From: Shigella phage vB_SboM_Phaginator
Reading direction: 5' to 3' (one strand)
Sequence record: OL615012
DNA length: 64,000 bases
In this document: positions 3,041-53,696 of the stretch, piece after piece
Layout of the letters: each line of letters starts with the position of its first letter
Position numbering within the stretch: the first letter of the stretch is position 1
Notes under the pieces: generated by a model
What the model saw: only the letters and a program-made list of their open reading frames with translations
What the model was told of the DNA's origin: nothing
Databases searched by the model: none
Position numbers and translations under genes: made by a program

Positions 3041-3058
3041 AAAGGGCCGAAGCCCTTT
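3041..3058 (-). other. Intercistronic RNA hairpin with UUCG tetraloop (a-gt / 47 junction)
   Basis: Plus AAAGGGC-CGAA-GCCCTTT = minus GGGC-UUCG-GCCC stem-loop overlapping a-gt stop. Confidence 0.5.
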
Positions 3059-4300: not shown

Positions 4301-4329
4301 TAAAGCAATATAGGAGCCGAAGCTCCTAT
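4301..4329 (-). promoter_or_regulatory. Putative MotA-dependent middle promoter upstream of a-gt, adjacent to UUCG-loop hairpin
   Basis: Minus-strand ATTGCTTTA (MotA-box-like) then about 11 nt then TAAAAT; hairpin GGAGC-UUCG-GCUCC at 4311-4329. Confidence 0.35.
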
Positions 4330-6675: not shown

Positions 6676-6696
6676 CCAAAAAGGGCCGAAGCCCTT
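6676..6696 (-). terminator. Rho-independent terminator (UUCG-loop hairpin plus U-run)
   Basis: Minus strand AAGGGC-UUCG-GCCCUU followed by UUUUGG. Confidence 0.6.
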
Positions 6697-12943: not shown

Positions 12944-13211
12944 ATCGGTGTTTACAATGGCGACATTTATAACGAAGATTACTAGTCTGCCAATGAACTA
13001 ATTGTACCTGTTCAGTACCGCATTCAGGGCAATTAGGAACGTTTTTAGAAGCCCTTTCGCGACGCTTAACCATAGCCATAATGGCATCCCATGCTGGAGG
13101 TTTAAAATCTAAATCGTCAGTAACTAGCAGTCCTTTATCAAACCCAGCGCATGGAGTCCATTCAGGAAAATCTGAAGCTTCGGCAATATCTTCTAATAAA
13201 CGCTTTTTCAT
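12915..13211 (-). CDS. Hypothetical zinc-ribbon protein
   Basis: 98 aa with CPECG...CRHCKH paired Cys motifs. Confidence 0.5.
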
Positions 13212-14134
13212 TTCAGTACCTCAATAGCATCACGTAAACCATTTGCTTTGGCGGTTAAAGCCTTAAGAACTTTAGTATGCTCTTCAATCTGTTTTTCAAC
13301 TTCAATCAAACGAGCACTGAGATATTCGCGTTCTTCTTTCATAGTATCATTCCCACGATTGGGCTTTGGCGTAGGTTTAAATTTACTAGGGTCCTTTAAC
13401 TTAATAACAACTTTAGTTTCAAACAGTGAAAGACCATAATTCGTATTATCATCAAAGGATTCAACTACGTCCATTTTAGACAATAACGTACGAAGATTAT
13501 AAGTCAAAGAACGAATCGTTTTATTATGTTTATTAGCTTCACATGGTTTCATATATGGAAGATTTTTATATATTTCATGTGGAGCACAAACAATAATTGA
13601 CAATTCAAATAGTCCATTCTGTGATGATGGAATGAATTTAGCCGTAACCCAATCTTTTACATTTACATTAATAGTACGGTCATCGCCATGACAAAACAGT
13701 CTACGAGAATGCTTAAAAAGCATATTCACATTATTATTAAATTCGTGTGAAAACTCACTAGCAAATTTTTCTTTACTATTTTTAGAAAACCATTCTTCTA
13801 AATAAGTTCTTTTCACGTCATTAATAATATTAAATGTAACAACATTAGCATTTGATACATTAGTCTCAATATAGCTTGGATACATAAATTTTTTAACATT
13901 ATTAACAGCTATCACAGAAGATAGTAATCGGGAACGTTTAAACCATTCAAGCAAATTACCTAACGAATGAGAATAAGCGTTTTGAGTATCTTTACAAATA
14001 TGGTTTTCCCATCCAATATAGTCTAAAAAATCACGAAGAATATTATTGATTACTGCTCTGTGTCCGATTTGATAATTACGGTGTTTAGTAATAAGACTGT
14101 CAAAATAATCAATATAATGCTTACGAGTTTTCAT
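13208..14134 (-). CDS. Hypothetical protein, variable N-domain plus C-terminal coiled coil (array member 1)
   Basis: 308 aa; Pro/Lys linker (KFKPTPKPNRG) then heptad-repeat tail. Confidence 0.6.
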   Translation of the reverse strand: MKTRKHYIDYFDSLITKHRNYQIGHRAVINNILRDFLDYIGWENHICKDTQNAYSHSLGNLLEWFKRSRLLSSVIAVNNVKKFMYPSYIETNVSNANVVTFNIINDVKRTYLEEWFSKNSKEKFASEFSHEFNNNVNMLFKHSRRLFCHGDDRTINVNVKDWVTAKFIPSSQNGLFELSIIVCAPHEIYKNLPYMKPCEANKHNKTIRSLTYNLRTLLSKMDVVESFDDNTNYGLSLFETKVVIKLKDPSKFKPTPKPNRGNDTMKEEREYLSARLIEVEKQIEEHTKVLKALTAKANGLRDAIEVLK

Positions 14135-14186
14135 GTTCTTCTCACTTGGTTAATGATTTATACTCCGAGCCATCCTTGGCTTTAAA

Positions 14187-15188
14187 TTACTTAATTAACT
14201 GTAAAGCTTGTTCAAGACGATCCAAGCGATTGACAGATTCTTCCCAAATCTTTTTAGCCTGCTCATATTCTTTCTGCGCTTTATTAGAAATTTCTAGAAC
14301 TTCTTTATAAGCTTTTTCTAGTGCAATAACTTCTGGACGAATTTCTGCCGGTTCAGGCGAATCATCAAGATTATCCATTAGTTCCTCAAGGGTAGTTTCT
14401 TCTTTAGGAGTATTCACAATTTCATCACATTTTTGTTGGTAAATTTCTTTACTAGTAGGTGAATAAGTACATTTCACTTCACGAAGACTAATTACAATTT
14501 TATATCCTTCCCAGCCGCATATATTCTTAAAAGGATATGTATGAATATTTTCTACTGTTTCCATACAAAGTAATGCGGTCTCTAATTGACGAGTTATAGT
14601 GCTAGCAATTGAGAAAAATTTATTAATGTTCTTTTGGTTAGTTTCTGGTGTAAAAAATCCATAATTCACAAAAATAGATACTTTATTTTTATCAAGTTCA
14701 TATTCTTTTATGATAATCATATCAGAAGCCAAAGGATGAATTTGACGATAATCGCCATAACATAATTTAGAAGCTGATTTTAGAATCTGTCCTTTGAAAA
14801 GTCTGAAATTACTAATCCAACGACGAGTAAAAATATTCTCAGGGTCTTCTTTATTATTAAGATGATAAGAATTAACATCACCGAACCAATTATATCCTAC
14901 TACATCTTTGGTTCGTTTAATTTCTTTCCCAAAATTACCAAGAATATCCCGATTAACCAAATATGAAAGAAGACGAGACTCTTTAAAGGTTTTCTTGATA
15001 ACATCTTTATCTACACGGCTAGAAATTTTACGAATTTCATGAATAAATTTAGTAGAAGAAACAATACTTGCATCAACACTATTGAGCCATTGATTGATAA
15101 TAGAAAGAACGATATTTTGACCAAACATCGGTATAGCTTTATCATCAATAACGCTATTGAATGATTTGATATATTCGTTACGAGTCAT
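14187..15188 (-). CDS. Hypothetical protein, variable N-domain plus C-terminal coiled coil (array member 2)
   Basis: Track ORF 14187..15239; start moved to MTRNEY (GAGGAG RBS upstream, and early promoter at 15217-15245 would otherwise lie inside the ORF). Confidence 0.6.
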   Translation of the reverse strand: MTRNEYIKSFNSVIDDKAIPMFGQNIVLSIINQWLNSVDASIVSSTKFIHEIRKISSRVDKDVIKKTFKESRLLSYLVNRDILGNFGKEIKRTKDVVGYNWFGDVNSYHLNNKEDPENIFTRRWISNFRLFKGQILKSASKLCYGDYRQIHPLASDMIIIKEYELDKNKVSIFVNYGFFTPETNQKNINKFFSIASTITRQLETALLCMETVENIHTYPFKNICGWEGYKIVISLREVKCTYSPTSKEIYQQKCDEIVNTPKEETTLEELMDNLDDSPEPAEIRPEVIALEKAYKEVLEISNKAQKEYEQAKKIWEESVNRLDRLEQALQLIK

Positions 15189-15216
15189 AATAATCTCCTC
15201 AGTAGAAAGTAAGAAC

Positions 15217-15245
15217 ATTATACCACATCCTTGTGGCAATGTAAA
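15217..15245 (-). promoter_or_regulatory. Early promoter
   Basis: Minus strand TTTACA - 17 bp - TGgTATAAT. Confidence 0.6.
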
Positions 15246-16265
15246 CTAGTTCAGTGCATTTAGTGCATTGTTCAGTTTAGAACGTTGCTTCGTAAGATTT
15301 TTGACTTTTTCTTGAGCTTTTTCCAACATCTTTTCAGCTTCTAGCACTTCATTGGTCGCTTTAACGAGTTCATCATCTACTGCCTTAAGAGACTTCTCAA
15401 TCGCGTCAGCGTGCCATTTTTCTACAGGTTTAAAATTTGAATTTTCAGTAGGAAGAAAATTCACTTTATTAAGTTTACATGCATCTATATTGCTTGAGCT
15501 ATACATCCAAAATTTAGGATCGTTTGATAAGTAATTGGATAAATTTAAGTTATCTTGCACTTCCTGCTTTTTCTCTTGCGGGACTTCGTCCTTTCTCAAA
15601 AAATCGTATTTAAATGAAACGATCATATCAAGTTCATATGATGTTGTATCTAACTTAAATCGTTCAAAACGAGGTAAAATCTTAGATTGAACAGCAGCAA
15701 CAACATCCATATACTTAAATGCTTCTGTCAACTGTGATTTAAGACATTCACAAATTGAAAGAGAATTTTTTGTATTAGGTTTAAAGCTAATTCGTGCAGT
15801 TCTATTATTTTCTTTTAACGGTCTTACTTCCATCTGAAGAGTATAACCATCAAATTTCAGGTTCTTTAAGTTAATATCAGAGCCTTTTAATCGACTAGCA
15901 GTAGACAAAATTTGCTTTAATTGTCTACGGAACAGAGCAATAAATCTCCATTCAATACGATAATGATTCGGATTGAAAAATCCAGATGATAAATCGACCT
16001 TACTTTGACCAACGCCTTGAACAAATAGAGGATTTTTATAATCAATAGTTTTACAGAAATCGGTGAGCTGCTCACGAGCAGTCATTTGTGTAATATATCC
16101 CGCTTTACTAAAATGACGTAACCATTCACTGCTATTCATATACTTAAAGTGAATATCACGATTAACTTTATCAGGGTCTAAATTATTTTGGCACAAAAAT
16201 GTCATAACATCACGAGTATAGCTGGCATTACGAACCATATCTTCAATTTGAGAACGAGTTTTCAT
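15246..16265 (-). CDS. Hypothetical protein, variable N-domain plus C-terminal coiled coil (array member 3)
   Basis: 339 aa; C-terminal heptad-rich tail. Confidence 0.6.
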   Translation of the reverse strand: MKTRSQIEDMVRNASYTRDVMTFLCQNNLDPDKVNRDIHFKYMNSSEWLRHFSKAGYITQMTAREQLTDFCKTIDYKNPLFVQGVGQSKVDLSSGFFNPNHYRIEWRFIALFRRQLKQILSTASRLKGSDINLKNLKFDGYTLQMEVRPLKENNRTARISFKPNTKNSLSICECLKSQLTEAFKYMDVVAAVQSKILPRFERFKLDTTSYELDMIVSFKYDFLRKDEVPQEKKQEVQDNLNLSNYLSNDPKFWMYSSSNIDACKLNKVNFLPTENSNFKPVEKWHADAIEKSLKAVDDELVKATNEVLEAEKMLEKAQEKVKNLTKQRSKLNNALNALN

Positions 16266-16273
16266 GGTGTTCC

Positions 16274-17161
16274 TTAAGATTTAAGTAAATCAATAATTTT
16301 AATTAACTTTTCACGCTCAGATTTAGCTTTACTACTCAATCCAGATAGTCTGAAAATTTCATCATCATATTGTTGAATAGAAATATTCAGCTCTTCAATT
16401 TGCTTATTAAAATAATCAATTTGTTCAGAATGTTTTTCGTTACTACGAACTGGTACAGGTTTTGTAGGCAATTTAGTTGAACTGGATTCATCCGGGCGAT
16501 AAATTAAAATACAACTTGAACCAATTGGACATTTTGCACCAGATGAATATTCTAATGTTCCAGCTTCTTTTAAAACTTCAAAAGCTAAACAGAGATGATG
16601 CCCCATATTAACATAATCTGTAGAGCGAGCTCTGATGTAATAATCATCTCCGCGAATACTAAATTTAAAGCATTTAAGGTCTTCTGTATTATTGGTCTTA
16701 AAAATCATTTGTTTATCTAGACCTTTAGCTAATCGAGCGCCTAATGCTAATAATCGTCGTTGATTTTCCCACAAATCCGCAATCATTTGGTCAAATGATA
16801 ATTTCGGCATTAGTCGACCATAAAGGTCGTATCCTTTATTATAATTGCGAAGGATTTCACTCGCGTTAATACGAGACAATGCTCCAATTTTATTAAGGGC
16901 TTTCATGATGCGATTAGATAAACCCATTCCAGACCCGTTTGTTCGCTGTAAATGTTTTTCTAATCCAAATCCAATATCAACTTTAAACTTATCTAAAATT
17001 TCTGCATGAACATCTCTGTCAATAACATTCAAATCCAAAGTTGGGTTAAATCTATGAAAAAATTTATCTGGCTCTCCACGACGAAGTACAGTCCATTCAT
17101 TCAATTTTTTATTAACTAAAGATTTAATTACTGCATTGACATTATTAATTACTACTGACAT
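16274..17161 (-). CDS. Hypothetical protein, variable N-domain plus C-terminal coiled coil (array member 4)
   Basis: Track ORF 16274..17182; ATG with GAGG RBS at 17161 (MSVVINN...). Confidence 0.6.
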   Translation of the reverse strand: MSVVINNVNAVIKSLVNKKLNEWTVLRRGEPDKFFHRFNPTLDLNVIDRDVHAEILDKFKVDIGFGLEKHLQRTNGSGMGLSNRIMKALNKIGALSRINASEILRNYNKGYDLYGRLMPKLSFDQMIADLWENQRRLLALGARLAKGLDKQMIFKTNNTEDLKCFKFSIRGDDYYIRARSTDYVNMGHHLCLAFEVLKEAGTLEYSSGAKCPIGSSCILIYRPDESSSTKLPTKPVPVRSNEKHSEQIDYFNKQIEELNISIQQYDDEIFRLSGLSSKAKSEREKLIKIIDLLKS

Positions 17162-17168
17162 ATTTTCC

Positions 17169-17576
17169 TCACTCAATTTCAATTTTACTAAATACGCAGA
17201 ATATGATGGAAAAGACTATATAAGCACCGCATACAGATTGAACTAATACCATTCCAAAGAACCAAACAATATTATCAAACAATGTCTGTTTTACGTCGAA
17301 AGGACGTAAACTTACAGTAATATTATCGTCTTTTTCTATTGATGAATACATCTCTGGGGAAATATATTCGCTAAATCTATAACCGTCTTTGAGTTCATAT
17401 ACGGCAATAAACGATAAACTAGACCCCTTTCCTTGAGTTCCTGTAAGGGTATTAACTACAGTAACATCATAATCTTTATAATGCATATAATCATTAATTG
17501 CGTAATAACCATATGCAATTACTATACATAAACAACATATCAATAAATTCAATCTTTTAATTATCAACTGTTTCAT
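17169..17576 (-). CDS. Hypothetical membrane protein (two predicted TM helices)
   Basis: 135 aa; hydrophobic N- and C-terminal segments. Confidence 0.55.
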   Translation of the reverse strand: MKQLIIKRLNLLICCLCIVIAYGYYAINDYMHYKDYDVTVVNTLTGTQGKGSSLSFIAVYELKDGYRFSEYISPEMYSSIEKDDNITVSLRPFDVKQTLFDNIVWFFGMVLVQSVCGAYIVFSIIFCVFSKIEIE

Positions 17577-17604
17577 AATAATCTCAATTAAAAGGGCTTA
17601 GAAC

Positions 17605-17633
17605 CATTATACCATCCTTGGTATAAAGCGGTT
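17605..17633 (-). promoter_or_regulatory. Possible extended -10 promoter (weak -35)
   Basis: Minus strand TGgTATAAT with no good -35; overlaps palindrome ATACCATCCTTGGTAT. Confidence 0.3.
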
Positions 17634-18159
17634 ATGCGAGTACCGTCTTTAACCGTTCTTCAAACTTCCGAAGAGTATTTTGGCGTTCAGCTCTTTGCTT
17701 TTTGTAAGTTTCAATACGCTCTGAAATGAGAGTGTATCGTTCATTTACTGATTCTTTCATAAAATCAGGAATTTCACGAGAAGCTTTAATCTCGTCAAAT
17801 TTATCAATAACAGCTTGCTCTTCAGCAATTAAGTTATCATACATCAAAATATCTTTCTTGATGAACTCAATATCTTCTTGAGTTACACGAGATAATTTAG
17901 ATGCTTTATCCTTTTTGTACTGTTCGTTAGTATCACGAGACCAGTGTAATGTACGATTTTTATTCGTATTTTTGTAAATTTCTACAATACCAATCTCATC
18001 GATAATAACGATCCAATTCCAACGGGATTTGTAAATTTGTCCTCCATCAACCGTGATTTCACCTCCGATTGAGATGTCATTAAAGAACTTGCTTTGTGCT
18101 TCTGATTTAAATTTACCATCGTTGTAATTTACCAGGTTGAAAATATCTTTAGCGTTCAT
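17632..18159 (-). CDS. Hypothetical protein
   Basis: Track ORF 17632..18219; start moved to MNAKDIF (GGAGGA RBS); upstream part of track ORF is promoter read-through. Confidence 0.55.
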   Translation of the reverse strand: MNAKDIFNLVNYNDGKFKSEAQSKFFNDISIGGEITVDGGQIYKSRWNWIVIIDEIGIVEIYKNTNKNRTLHWSRDTNEQYKKDKASKLSRVTQEDIEFIKKDILMYDNLIAEEQAVIDKFDEIKASREIPDFMKESVNERYTLISERIETYKKQRAERQNTLRKFEERLKTVLA

Positions 18160-18187
18160 TTTGTGTTCCTCCGTAGTTGATAGTTGT

Positions 18188-18216
18188 ATAGTACCACAGA
18201 GGAACAGTCTTGTAAA
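18188..18216 (-). promoter_or_regulatory. Early promoter (PeSL-type consensus)
   Basis: Minus strand GTTTACA - 17 bp - TGgTACTAT - ACAACTATCAACT. Confidence 0.65.
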
Positions 18217-18219
18217 CAA

Positions 18220-18534
18220 CTAAAAGAAACTTCTTTCACAATTTTTTCCACTGAACCATGCACTGACCGCTTTCTTAGTCTCAGGAGCAGTGTTATCCAT
18301 AAACCATTCAAAGGCAGCCTTTTTATGATTCTGGAGGGCTTCTCGGGCTTTAATCTGCTCACGGTCTATTAACACTAATACGTGAGCCTTTCTTGTCACC
18401 ATGGGCTTCTTATGATTTTTTGAATACTCCCAATCATTTGTCCATCGCATCGTTGTTGCGAACTGATGAACCGCGTCTTTAATTTTAGTTTCATAAATTT
18501 CACGAGCCTTTGAGTATAACATCATTACCTCCAT
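18220..18534 (-). CDS. Hypothetical protein
   Basis: ORF track 104 aa. Confidence 0.5.
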   Translation of the reverse strand: MEVMMLYSKAREIYETKIKDAVHQFATTMRWTNDWEYSKNHKKPMVTRKAHVLVLIDREQIKAREALQNHKKAAFEWFMDNTAPETKKAVSAWFSGKNCERSFF

Positions 18535-18623
18535 TTACCAGTTTAATTCTAGTCATCTTTTTAATGGCAGTCCATATAATCTATTTCTGAACTGCCTTTT
18601 TGTCATAGAAGTCCTCTTATGAA

Positions 18624-19592
18624 TTATTTCAGAAGAGTAACCTCAGCAATTTCTTCCCAACCGTTTTTGTCGGTCATAATAAAGTCAGCAAGATAAAGTG
18701 CAGTACGCAGTGAAACATTGCGTAAACGATTAACATTAACTTTCATCCATGATAATGCTTTATAAGTTTCTTCATCAGAAAGACCGCGCTTTTGCATCAT
18801 GTCAGTTGAAAGAATAACATCTTCAACCCTGACCATAATTTCTTCATTAGTGTGAACACCCAAATCTAAATAAACTGAGCGGGACACTAATGCTTGTAAA
18901 TGTGGAGCAAGTTTAGTACCACGGTCTAATTCGCGGTCAATGTCAACGTTTGTGATAAAAACAATCGTTCCTTTAAATTCAAACTCACGCTCAATGCCTT
19001 TTTCTTCTAAGTAAGAAGATGCAGTGCTCCAGCAGACTTTACGGGTCTCTCCAGTGTCCAGAGCAGCTTTCAGAAGATTAAGAATGTCCATATCAGAGAA
19101 AACATCCACATCATCAATCAAAAGGACAGAATTCTCTTCACGATTATTCCAAAGTTGTTCATAAAGACCGATACCGGAGATTTTACCGTTAATGCTTTTA
19201 TATTCAATGTATCCAATATCATTTGCTTTATTTAAAGCTTTATCTAAAGAATACGTTTTACCAATACCCGCCGCACCAGAGATAATTAATGAACGAATGT
19301 TTCCGTTAATAATACCATTCGTCATCATTCCCATAACATTAAATCTTTTATTAATGCGGGTTTTCATATCTTCATATGATTCTTTAACTTCTTCAACTTT
19401 TACACCATCATATGAAATGTCTGATTTGTAAACCCAAACACCGCGACGCTTACCGTCAATTTCAACAAAAACTTTACCATCTCCTTGTGCATCCACCGGA
19501 GCATTATCTGGGAACCATTCGCCTAAGAGCTCAAAAGTTCCAGAGATTTCTTTACCGAAGTAGATACCCTTATTGATAGTTACAGTTTTCAT
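18624..19592 (-). CDS. P-loop NTPase (AAA-like ATPase), function unknown
   Basis: Walker A GAAGIGKT and Walker B VLLIDDVD; track ORF 18624..19760 trimmed to MKTVTINKG (GGAGAA RBS) because promoter and terminator lie in the upstream part. Confidence 0.65.
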   Translation of the reverse strand: MKTVTINKGIYFGKEISGTFELLGEWFPDNAPVDAQGDGKVFVEIDGKRRGVWVYKSDISYDGVKVEEVKESYEDMKTRINKRFNVMGMMTNGIINGNIRSLIISGAAGIGKTYSLDKALNKANDIGYIEYKSINGKISGIGLYEQLWNNREENSVLLIDDVDVFSDMDILNLLKAALDTGETRKVCWSTASSYLEEKGIEREFEFKGTIVFITNVDIDRELDRGTKLAPHLQALVSRSVYLDLGVHTNEEIMVRVEDVILSTDMMQKRGLSDEETYKALSWMKVNVNRLRNVSLRTALYLADFIMTDKNGWEEIAEVTLLK

Positions 19593-33721: not shown

Positions 33722-33737
33722 AGGGGCCGAAGCCCCT
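33722..33737 (-). other. Intercistronic RNA hairpin with UUCG tetraloop
   Basis: Minus strand AGGGGC-UUCG-GCCCCU just after stop of 33743..34336; no clear U-run. Confidence 0.4.
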
Positions 33738-34754: not shown

Positions 34755-34783
34755 ATAATATCTCAATCATGAGCCTGTGTAAA
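34755..34783 (-). promoter_or_regulatory. Early promoter overlapping a 9-bp inverted repeat
   Basis: Minus strand GTTTACA - 17 bp - TATTAT; spacer contains CAGGCTCAT...ATGAGCCTG hairpin. Confidence 0.55.
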
Positions 34784-52829: not shown

Positions 52830-53696
52830 ATGTTCATTCAAGAACCAAAGAAATTGATTGATACCGGCGAAATTGGTAACGCTTCTACTGGTGATATCTT
52901 ATTCGACGGTGGTAATAAAATTAATAGTGATTTTAACGCAATTTATAATGCGTTTGGCGATCAACGTAAAATGGCAGTAGCAAATGGCACCGGAGCAGAT
53001 GGTCAAATTATCCATGCTACTGGATATTATCAAAAACACTCTATTGCAGAGTATGCAACTCCAGTGAAAGTTGGCACTAGACATGATATTGATACCTCTA
53101 CTGTAGGTGTTAAAGTTATCATTGAAAGAGGCGAACTCGGCGATTGTGTTGAATTCATTAACTCTAATGGATCAATATCAGTTACTAATCCTTTGACAAT
53201 CCAAGCTATTGATTCAATTAAAGGCGTTTCAGGTAATTTAGTAGTAACTAGTCCATATAGTAAAGTTACTTTACGTTGTATTTCATCTGATAATTCAACT
53301 TCAGTTTGGAATTATTCTATTGAAAGCATGTTTGGACAAAAGGAATCACCAGCTGAAGGTACATGGAATATTTCTACATCTGGATCAGTTGATATTCCAC
53401 TATTTCATCGTACTGAATACAATATGGCTAAATTGCTAGTTACGTGCCAATCGGTAGATGGAAGAAAAATTAAAACAGCAGAAATAAATATTCTTGTGGA
53501 TACTGTTAATTCAGAAGTTATTTCTTCTGAGTATGCTGTCATGCGAGTTGGGAATGAAACCGAAGAAGACGAAATCGCTAATATTGCATTTAGTATTAAA
53601 GAAAATTATGTAACGGCGACTATAAGTTCTTCAACTGTCGGTATGAGAGCAGCAGTTAAAGTTATCGCTACGCAGAAAATCGGGGTGGCTCAATAA
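52830..53696 (+). CDS. 9: Baseplate protein gp9 (long tail fibre attachment)
   Basis: 288 aa, T4 gp9 length; late promoter at 52798-52805. Confidence 0.9.
   Translation: MFIQEPKKLIDTGEIGNASTGDILFDGGNKINSDFNAIYNAFGDQRKMAVANGTGADGQIIHATGYYQKHSIAEYATPVKVGTRHDIDTSTVGVKVIIERGELGDCVEFINSNGSISVTNPLTIQAIDSIKGVSGNLVVTSPYSKVTLRCISSDNSTSVWNYSIESMFGQKESPAEGTWNISTSGSVDIPLFHRTEYNMAKLLVTCQSVDGRKIKTAEINILVDTVNSEVISSEYAVMRVGNETEEDEIANIAFSIKENYVTATISSSTVGMRAAVKVIATQKIGVAQ

Follow-up and report, generated by a model that had tools for sequence, protein, structure and literature searches.

Three short palindromes with an AGGA loop, spread over the nrdC.3–nrdC.8 locus of Shigella phage vB_SboM_Phaginator (sequence record OL615012), are likely to be promoter cassettes of a type already described in T4-type phages under the names PeSL (early promoter with a stem-loop) and PmSL (the version with a Mot box). 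The hairpin itself would be a weak boundary element in RNA that reads through from upstream, and most of the uncertainty in this interpretation concerns that function. The analysis started from a sequence-only reading of a 64,000-nucleotide stretch of this genome (hereafter the window), which had noted the palindromes on the minus strand, each immediately upstream of, or overlapping, a TATAAT box, and had proposed that they act as operators or RNA hairpins controlling initiation.

The palindromes are present within a few bases of where they had been placed (Table 1). All three lie on the coding strand and occupy the three gaps of 52–57 nucleotides (nt) that this locus has between nrdC genes. 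Their stems are longer than had been given: the perfect stem has 5 base pairs (bp) in copy 1 (AGCCAAGGATGGCT), 5 bp in copy 2 (CCACAAGGATGTGG; 7 bp with a G·U pair), and 8 bp in copy 3 (TTATACCAAGGATGGTATAA, with arms TTATACCA and TGGTATAA). The described proximity to TATAAT holds for two of them, since copy 2 directly adjoins such a box and copy 3 takes in the first five bases of one with its 3′ arm. At copy 1, five bases (CGGAG) separate the hairpin from a TATAAA(T) that lacks the key −7 T. The same division applies to the idea that these boxes belong to promoters, which is right for copies 2 and 3 (T4 early promoter 50.0 and PnrdC.7) and unsupported for copy 1.

The sigma-70 early promoter that serves nrdC.4 lies at copy 2. 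This is the best sigma-70 match within 13–19 kb of the window (11/12, with TG), and the hairpin fills its spacer. GenBank U76612 marks a −35 and a −10 at the T4 orthologue and names it ‘early promoter 50.0’. Early transcription of nrdC.4 would start near 15210. Since the promoter is preceded by the end of nrdC.5, it has no obvious A-rich UP element; by eye, this 3′ end of the preceding gene seems no richer in A+T than the window, whose A+T content is roughly 65%.

The MotA/AsiA-dependent middle promoter that serves nrdC.7 (PnrdC.7) lies at copy 3; its dependence on MotA is taken from the literature. Middle promoters have the architecture (a/t)(a/t)(a/t)TGCTTtA-N11–13-TAtaAT, and copy 3 has a MotA-box-like CGCTTTA (6/7 to consensus) 12 nt upstream of its TATAAT. 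The mapped T4 start of PnrdC.7, listed at 53325 in Table 1 of Hinton 2010 (PMC2988021) from Truncaite et al. 2003, falls 7 nt after this TATAAT, which corresponds to 17599 in the window. The 5′ arm of the hairpin overlaps the MotA box and the 3′ arm makes up the extended −10. The gene downstream encodes an unrelated membrane protein. Upstream, we infer that the early promoter of nrdC.8 is one source of read-through RNA that would hold this hairpin.

Copy 1 is probably, judging from its alignment, a decayed duplicate of the ancestral nrdC.4 promoter in which only the hairpin has been retained. Its frame, TTTAAA-N18-TATAAA, did not pass the sigma-70 scan. In alignment with the intact VR25/Dhakavirus-type promoters of nrdC.4, GTTTAC(t/a)TCCAAGGATGGA(g/t)GGAGTATAAT, it shows a C→A change in the −35, one additional nucleotide in the spacer, a T→A change in the −10, and an intact hairpin. 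Stem position 4 is G:C in copy 1 and T:A in those promoters, with pairing kept. In all the T4-like loci sampled, the hairpin of copy 1 is invariant, unlike CGGAG and TATAAAT next to it, which vary. Given the paralogy of nrdC.3 and nrdC.4, the best reading of copy 1 is a promoter that was duplicated with its gene. We also considered a T4 late promoter (TATAAATA) at copy 1 and rejected it; the box matches at 7/8 positions in the window (TATAAATC) and varies among relatives, which show TATAAACC or TATAAATT.

One half of the dyad belongs to the usual promoter consensus. The literature on T4 promoters describes a TGn or ‘GT-rich’ extension of the −10, and GTGG or TGG just upstream of the −10 is general among the T4 early-promoter-like sites listed. 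The 3′ arms (TGTGG and TGGTATAA) are this GT-rich extended −10 of T4 prereplicative promoters. Only the 5′ arm and the AGGA centre need explaining.

These assignments bear on what had been claimed for the locus as a whole. Shared regulation, suggested by three copies in one place, finds no support, as the promoters are not of one temporal class: copy 2 is sigma-70 early, copy 3 is MotA/AsiA middle, and copy 1 fails the sigma-70 criteria and has a variable −10-like box. Control of initiation by the hairpin as RNA fares no better: a promoter's transcript begins at +1, downstream of the hairpin, and therefore lacks it. The three copies do occur in a single locus, partly through paralogy and cassette spread, and a further copy exists at rIIA.1. 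Paralogy covers only part of the ‘four-gene array’: nrdC.3 and nrdC.4 share PHROG 1435 and are its only clear paralogues, nrdC.5 and nrdC.6 are in other families, and identity among the four larger nrdC proteins is only about 20%. We therefore rejected simple four-gene paralogy as the whole explanation, given the restricted paralogy, the unrelated gene behind copy 3 and the copy at rIIA.1.

The elements are conserved among relatives, and much further than the sequence around them. All three copies are unchanged in PST, ESh36, Manna and the T4-like loci of IMG/VR. Conservation extends to genera in which NrdC.4 is only 44–50% identical and nrdC.3 and nrdC.7 are absent, namely Gaprivervirus VR25 and Dhakavirus Bp7-type phages. 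The 31-nt block of copy 3 (CGCTTTATACCAAGGATGGTATAATGGTTCT) is identical in these Gaprivervirus and Dhakavirus phages, where it lies upstream of nrdC.6. When the 4.5 kb around the finding was used as a query, the sole megablast-detectable similarity to these genera was query 1–102 (window 17700–17599), which stops at the start of transcription. The genera differ in whether they have nrdC.7 just downstream of copy 3, and in whether they have nrdC.3 together with copy 1.

The nrdC.4 promoter reads GTTTAC-tTCCA-AGGA-TGGAg-GGAG-TATAAT in VR25 and GTTTAC-aTCCA-AGGA-TGGAt-GGAG-TATAAT in the Dhakavirus type; from −36 to −7, the differences are confined to two mutually pairing bases (T·G vs A:T). In an alignment of 14 distinct members of the family, pairing is seen in 87.5% of the stem cells, compared with 66.5% in column shuffles (0/500 reach the observed value) and 28–48% for slid partners, although these figures are inflated by the fact that the sequences are related and were picked through the core motif, so that their informative part is the outer positions of independent subfamilies. 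Five stem pairs have changed on both sides, and four different Watson–Crick pairs are found at stem position 4. Base-pairing potential thus appears to be maintained.

The module is also found at unlinked loci. In T4, the promoter of rIIA.1, 48 kb away, holds a fourth copy (GTTTACTTTACCACAAGGATGTGGTATAAT), identical to the nrdC.4 promoter at 31/32 positions within unrelated flanks, and a fifth relative lies at T4 167057; in total, only about 4–5 of about 35–40 T4 early promoters carry the motif. In IMG/VR, the 16-mer CCACAAGGATGTGGTA occurs in 64 stretches representing about 50 contexts, and the CCACAAGGATGTGG module was found in at least 12 different gene contexts, at the same early-promoter spacer position and with various −10 hexamers. 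The base 5′ of CCACA in the intergenic contexts is always A or G, opposite T, so that an A-U or G·U pair could form there in the sense RNA. A few modules stand outside the promoter frame: before a Shine–Dalgarno sequence (locus L043), before a T-run (L068), and upstream of GTTTAC (L022). We also observed CCACAAGGATGTGGTA in conserved coding regions of unrelated viral contigs (L024, L034, L038, L018, L042 and others), and exact matches are thus not all promoter modules.

Raw frequency does not contribute to the case. The core CAAGGATG occurs 4 times in the window against 1.76 expected (6 of 100 shuffles reach 4), and an 8-nt hairpin core common to at least three hairpins was obtained in 19 of 200 dinucleotide shuffles. 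Neither the 8-mer count nor the shared-core statistic is significant in the window alone. We therefore dropped enrichment as proof, and the case rests on position, conservation and covariation. A motif no more frequent than base composition predicts had been named as the outcome that would speak against the sequence-only reading; on frequency alone the window comes close to it, yet the dyad is non-random by context, given its intergenic placement, conservation across genera, covarying stems and recurrence. The whole T4 genome has only 4 perfect AGGA-loop hairpins with a stem of at least 5 bp, and all are intergenic and adjoin a −10. More generally, inverted repeats of at least 7 bp were found in 10 of 35 T4 early promoters, compared with 9% of random genomic 57-mers (p ~ 1e-3).

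Other repeats were noted along the way. Many T4-type early promoters have perfect inverted repeats of 6–10 bp on either side of the −10; their 5′ arm directly follows the −35, and their 3′ arm falls at about −6 to +3 (examples are T4 73910, 129890, 133302, 73543, 70330, 7186 and 146114, and the window minus-strand promoters whose −10 ends at 34755 and 40096). The orthologous promoters at window 34755 and T4 70330 differ by a compensatory T:A to C:G change. Because the arms differ between promoters, it seems that pairing rather than sequence is kept in these repeats. The window as a whole has 298 perfect hairpins with a stem of at least 5 bp and a 4-nt loop, against 201 +/- 18 in dinucleotide-preserving shuffles.

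At copies 2 and 3, the 3′ arm is the TGn element that sigma-70 region 3 reads, and the 5′ arm, placed in the spacer, is its complement around the invariant AGGA. If the sites are indeed cassettes of the PeSL/PmSL type, the hairpin would fold in RNA read through from upstream promoters, or in single-stranded DNA. By analogy with the PeSL model, it would most likely serve as a weak attenuator or as a 3′-end or processing mark between transcription units, and the conserved cassette of ~30 nt would provide a homology patch for the exchange of promoters between loci. A rho-independent or otherwise strong intrinsic terminator was rejected. The three stems fold as expected in RNA structure prediction. 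The predicted folding energies are weak, at −5.1 kcal/mol for copy 1, −4.4 kcal/mol for copy 2 (5 bp) and −6.5 kcal/mol for copy 3 (z = −3.6), and a lenient terminator scan passed only copy 2, marginally, with the tail TAATGTTCTT; on the minus strand it gave no call at copy 1 or copy 3. Rfam covariance models gave no match at E <= 1 within window 13000–19000. The predicted energies and the lack of a U-run suggest weak terminator or attenuator activity, if anything.

Several observations weigh against this interpretation. The hairpins, at −4.4 to −6.5 kcal/mol, reach z scores of only −1.0 to −1.7 in a 61-nt context, and efficient intrinsic termination is doubtful because they have no U-run. Comeau et al. 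2014 (PMC4122927) place the stem-loops of PST/T4 just upstream of the promoter and not in the spacer. The covariation figures are inflated, as noted above. In close T4-like relatives, the recombination breakpoints are located within nrdC.3 and none was seen at the motifs, so that we discarded PeSL-mediated breakpoints at the motifs among these relatives. Finally, we scanned IMG/VR with a degenerate pattern (GTTTAC-N9-AGGA-N5-TANNAT) aimed at alternative stems in the same promoter position; among the matches listed, the only stem-forming spacer is the invariant CCACA/TGTGG. This subfamily looks like sequence copying rather than structural covariation.

Such copying is central to an alternative in which the dyad is a by-product: the core would come from common descent and cassette copying (the nrdC.3/nrdC.4 duplication and gene conversion), only the promoter elements would be selected, and perfect complementarity would arise from a quasi-palindrome through template-switch mutation as T4 replicates. 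In favour of this view, Ripley's work on rII reportedly established that quasi-palindromes in T4 undergo templated correction. It also accounts well for the paralogy of nrdC.3 and nrdC.4, the alignment of copy 1 with the ancestral-type nrdC.4 promoter, and a 14-mer that is invariant over many promoters, with no other stems at that position among the matches listed; the thermodynamic weakness of the hairpins and the non-significant motif frequency point the same way. We nevertheless regard it as unlikely. Against it stand the intact hairpin in a promoter that has otherwise decayed (copy 1), the pairing kept over genera whose proteins are about 45–50% identical, and a general excess of inverted repeats that sets early promoters apart from the rest of the genome. 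The palindrome might also be incidental to promoter strength, with the spacer, including AGGA and the 5′ arm, contacting RNA polymerase or shaping the DNA for it. T4 early promoters do have extra conserved positions beyond the −35, TGn and −10, the 3′ arm corresponds to the GT-rich extended −10 of the consensus, and the module recurs in many strong-looking promoters. However, this leaves unexplained the compensatory changes, the hairpin retained in the decayed copy 1 and the modules outside the promoter frame (L043, L068, L022), and spacers are unrelated in most T4 early promoters. We thus consider it improbable.

The operator originally proposed would be a duplex dyad at which a dimeric phage or host regulator, such as a T4 early shut-off factor, blocks RNA polymerase. 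The position of the dyad, overlapping the spacer and the −10, would suit such a role, as would the invariance of the core CAAGGATG, loop included, in all subfamilies and that of the 31-nt block at PnrdC.7 across genera. There is also room for such a factor, in that the mechanism of early-promoter shut-off is not known according to a review (Hinton 2010, PMC2988021). The arms argue otherwise: their sequence and length differ between copies (CCA, CCACA, TATACCA) with complementarity kept at the outer positions, including through G·U-type pairs, so that neither half-sites nor spacing are conserved, and half of the dyad is in any case the extended −10. Furthermore, the AGGA centre is asymmetric, G·T pairs are tolerated, only a few T4 early promoters carry the motif, its carriers are of different temporal classes, and no binding protein is known. 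A full-text literature search with the exact sequence strings returned only unrelated primer matches. We hold the operator to be the least probable of the explanations considered. Barely more credible is the notion that the invariant C-A-AGGA-U-G hairpin is an independently selected module, kept in the decayed copy 1 and spread among T4-type promoters, that would be read through its Shine–Dalgarno-like loop (by 30S/S1, RegB or another RNA-binding factor) or, as a duplex, by an early shut-off factor.

The locus corresponds to T4 nrdC.3–nrdC.8, at about 48.9–53.9 kb in T4 coordinates, and every gene is on the minus strand (Table 1). The 4.5 kb around the palindromes match 586 phage records with an identity of 80–97%; almost all of these records are T4-like (Tequatrovirus) coliphages.

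Table 1. Hairpins, promoters and genes of the nrdC.3–nrdC.8 locus (window positions).
Feature	Position	Strand	Remarks
Copy 1 hairpin, AGCCA-AGGA-TGGCT (AGCCAAGGATGGCT)	14181–14168	minus	nrdC.4/nrdC.3 intergenic gap
Copy 2 hairpin, CCACA-AGGA-TGTGG (CCACAAGGATGTGG)	15236–15223	minus	fills spacer of nrdC.4 early promoter
Copy 3 hairpin, TTATACCA-AGGA-TGGTATAA (TTATACCAAGGATGGTATAA)	17626–17607	minus	bridges MotA box and −10
Probable decayed early-promoter frame (copy 1)	14186–14157	minus	TTTAAA 14186–14181, 18-nt spacer, TATAAA 14162–14157
nrdC.4 early promoter (copy 2)	15246–15217	minus	GTTTAC 15246–15241 (TTTACA 15245–15240), 17-nt spacer with TGG extended −10, TATAAT 15222–15217
Middle promoter PnrdC.7 (copy 3)	17630–17599	minus	CGCTTTA 17630–17624, 12 nt, TATAAT 17611–17606, start 17599
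nrdC.8 early promoter	18216–18188	minus	TTTACA-N17-TACTAT with TG; T4 orthologue has −35/−10 annotation in U76612
nrdC.3	13208–14134	minus	
nrdC.4	14187–15188	minus	
nrdC.5	15246–16265	minus	Pfam DUF7235
nrdC.6	16274–17161	minus	
nrdC.7	17169–17576	minus	
nrdC.8	17632–18159	minus	

Some further features of these genes were observed. In VR25 and Bp7, which lack nrdC.7, a PnrdC.7-type promoter drives nrdC.6 directly (L015 1364–1440). In the window, nrdC.7 is flanked by short ATTGAG repeats in both ribosome-binding regions (17577–17600 and 17162–17185), which suggests insertion or deletion directly downstream of the promoter cassette. The plus strand of copy 3 reads TGGTATAAA (17607–17630), an extended −10-like sequence that points into the 3′ end of nrdC.8; an antisense promoter from this palindromic −10 was considered, and the sigma-70 scan gave no support for it. 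The T4 reference has a 1-nt deletion in nrdC.6 (GAGCTGATATTT vs GAGCTGAATATTT in the window and PST; window 16274–16400 vs T4 about 52.0–52.1 kb), which cuts the gene to 275 amino acids and creates a pseudo-intergenic gap of 70 nt. In the window and in PST, nrdC.6 has 295 amino acids and its stop lies 8 nt before nrdC.5. Salmonella phage Manna (L017 2715–3752) has one hybrid gene of 345 amino acids in place of nrdC.6, nrdC.5 and nrdC.4, whose last 83 residues are NrdC.4-like, implying a deletion that took out nrdC.5. Records that span 43–67% of the query suggest similar deletions.

Taken together, the result is mostly ordinary and mainly explains the palindromes away as two known promoters plus what is probably one decayed copy. 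The two T4 promoters and the cassette type were already published, and the new detail is modest: the AGGA-loop module, its covariation and its survival in the decayed promoter. Should the hairpin have a function of its own, it would give an easily mutated handle on the role of promoter-embedded stem-loops (insulation, RNA processing, recombination) and on the movement of promoter cassettes between T4 loci.

The elements can be compared with several known systems. Copy 2 resembles the T4 early ‘uber’ promoters (UP/−35/TGn/−10; the Miller 2003 consensus as relayed by Hinton 2010, PMC2988021) in its GTTTAC, 17-nt spacer, GT-rich TGn and TATAAT; it differs in having no obvious UP element and in its dyad, since the consensus as relayed there is described without one in the spacer. 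Copy 3 shares with the MotA/AsiA middle promoters (sigma appropriation) the MotA-box-like CGCTTTA at the expected distance from an extended −10, but that class is not defined by a dyad, whereas here one bridges the two boxes. The C(UUCG)G intercistronic hairpins of T4 are likewise short tetraloop hairpins, intergenic and on the coding strand; their UUCG loops are unusually stable and GC-clamped, whereas the AGGA-loop hairpins are weak and embedded in promoters. The window has four hairpins of the GC-clamped GGGC-TTCG-GCCC type on the minus strand (3046–3053, 4316–4323, 6685–6692 and 33726–33733), and GC-TTCG-GC is its most recurrent hairpin core.

The closest comparison is with the PeSLs of RB49/phi1, whose stem-loops lie mostly between the −35 and −10 or overlap the −10, and for which terminator/attenuator activity of one stem-loop and recombination between cassettes were reported (Arbiol et al. 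2010, PMC2839356). With the work of Comeau et al. 2014 (PMC4122927), the class came to include cassettes of PST/T4 (TTTACW-N17-TAYWAT) and cassettes with a Mot box (PmSL). These authors described degraded PeSLs with intact stem-loops at about 43–51 kb of PST, which is homologous to the present locus, and they treat the stretch of 43–53 kb as a hyperplastic region that bears PeSLs. All three copies are intergenic within the hyperplastic region of a T4-type genome. Copy 2 has the early-promoter form (TTTACA-17-TATAAT), copy 3 has a Mot box and a −10, and copy 1 (TTTAAA-18-TATAAA) matches the published ‘degraded PeSL’ category. The stem-loop stands between the −35 and −10 or overlaps the −10, and is followed by a Shine–Dalgarno sequence and ATG; the same cassette recurs at unlinked loci (T4 rIIA.1 and the at least 12 IMG/VR gene contexts). 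Terminator activity and mini-circle recombination are published features of PeSLs. The present elements differ in their weak predicted stability, in the lack of a U-run and in their stems, which are short and AT-rich here with an invariant AGGA loop, G/C-rich in RB49/phi1, and of the form AGNA-loop-TCNT in PST/T4.

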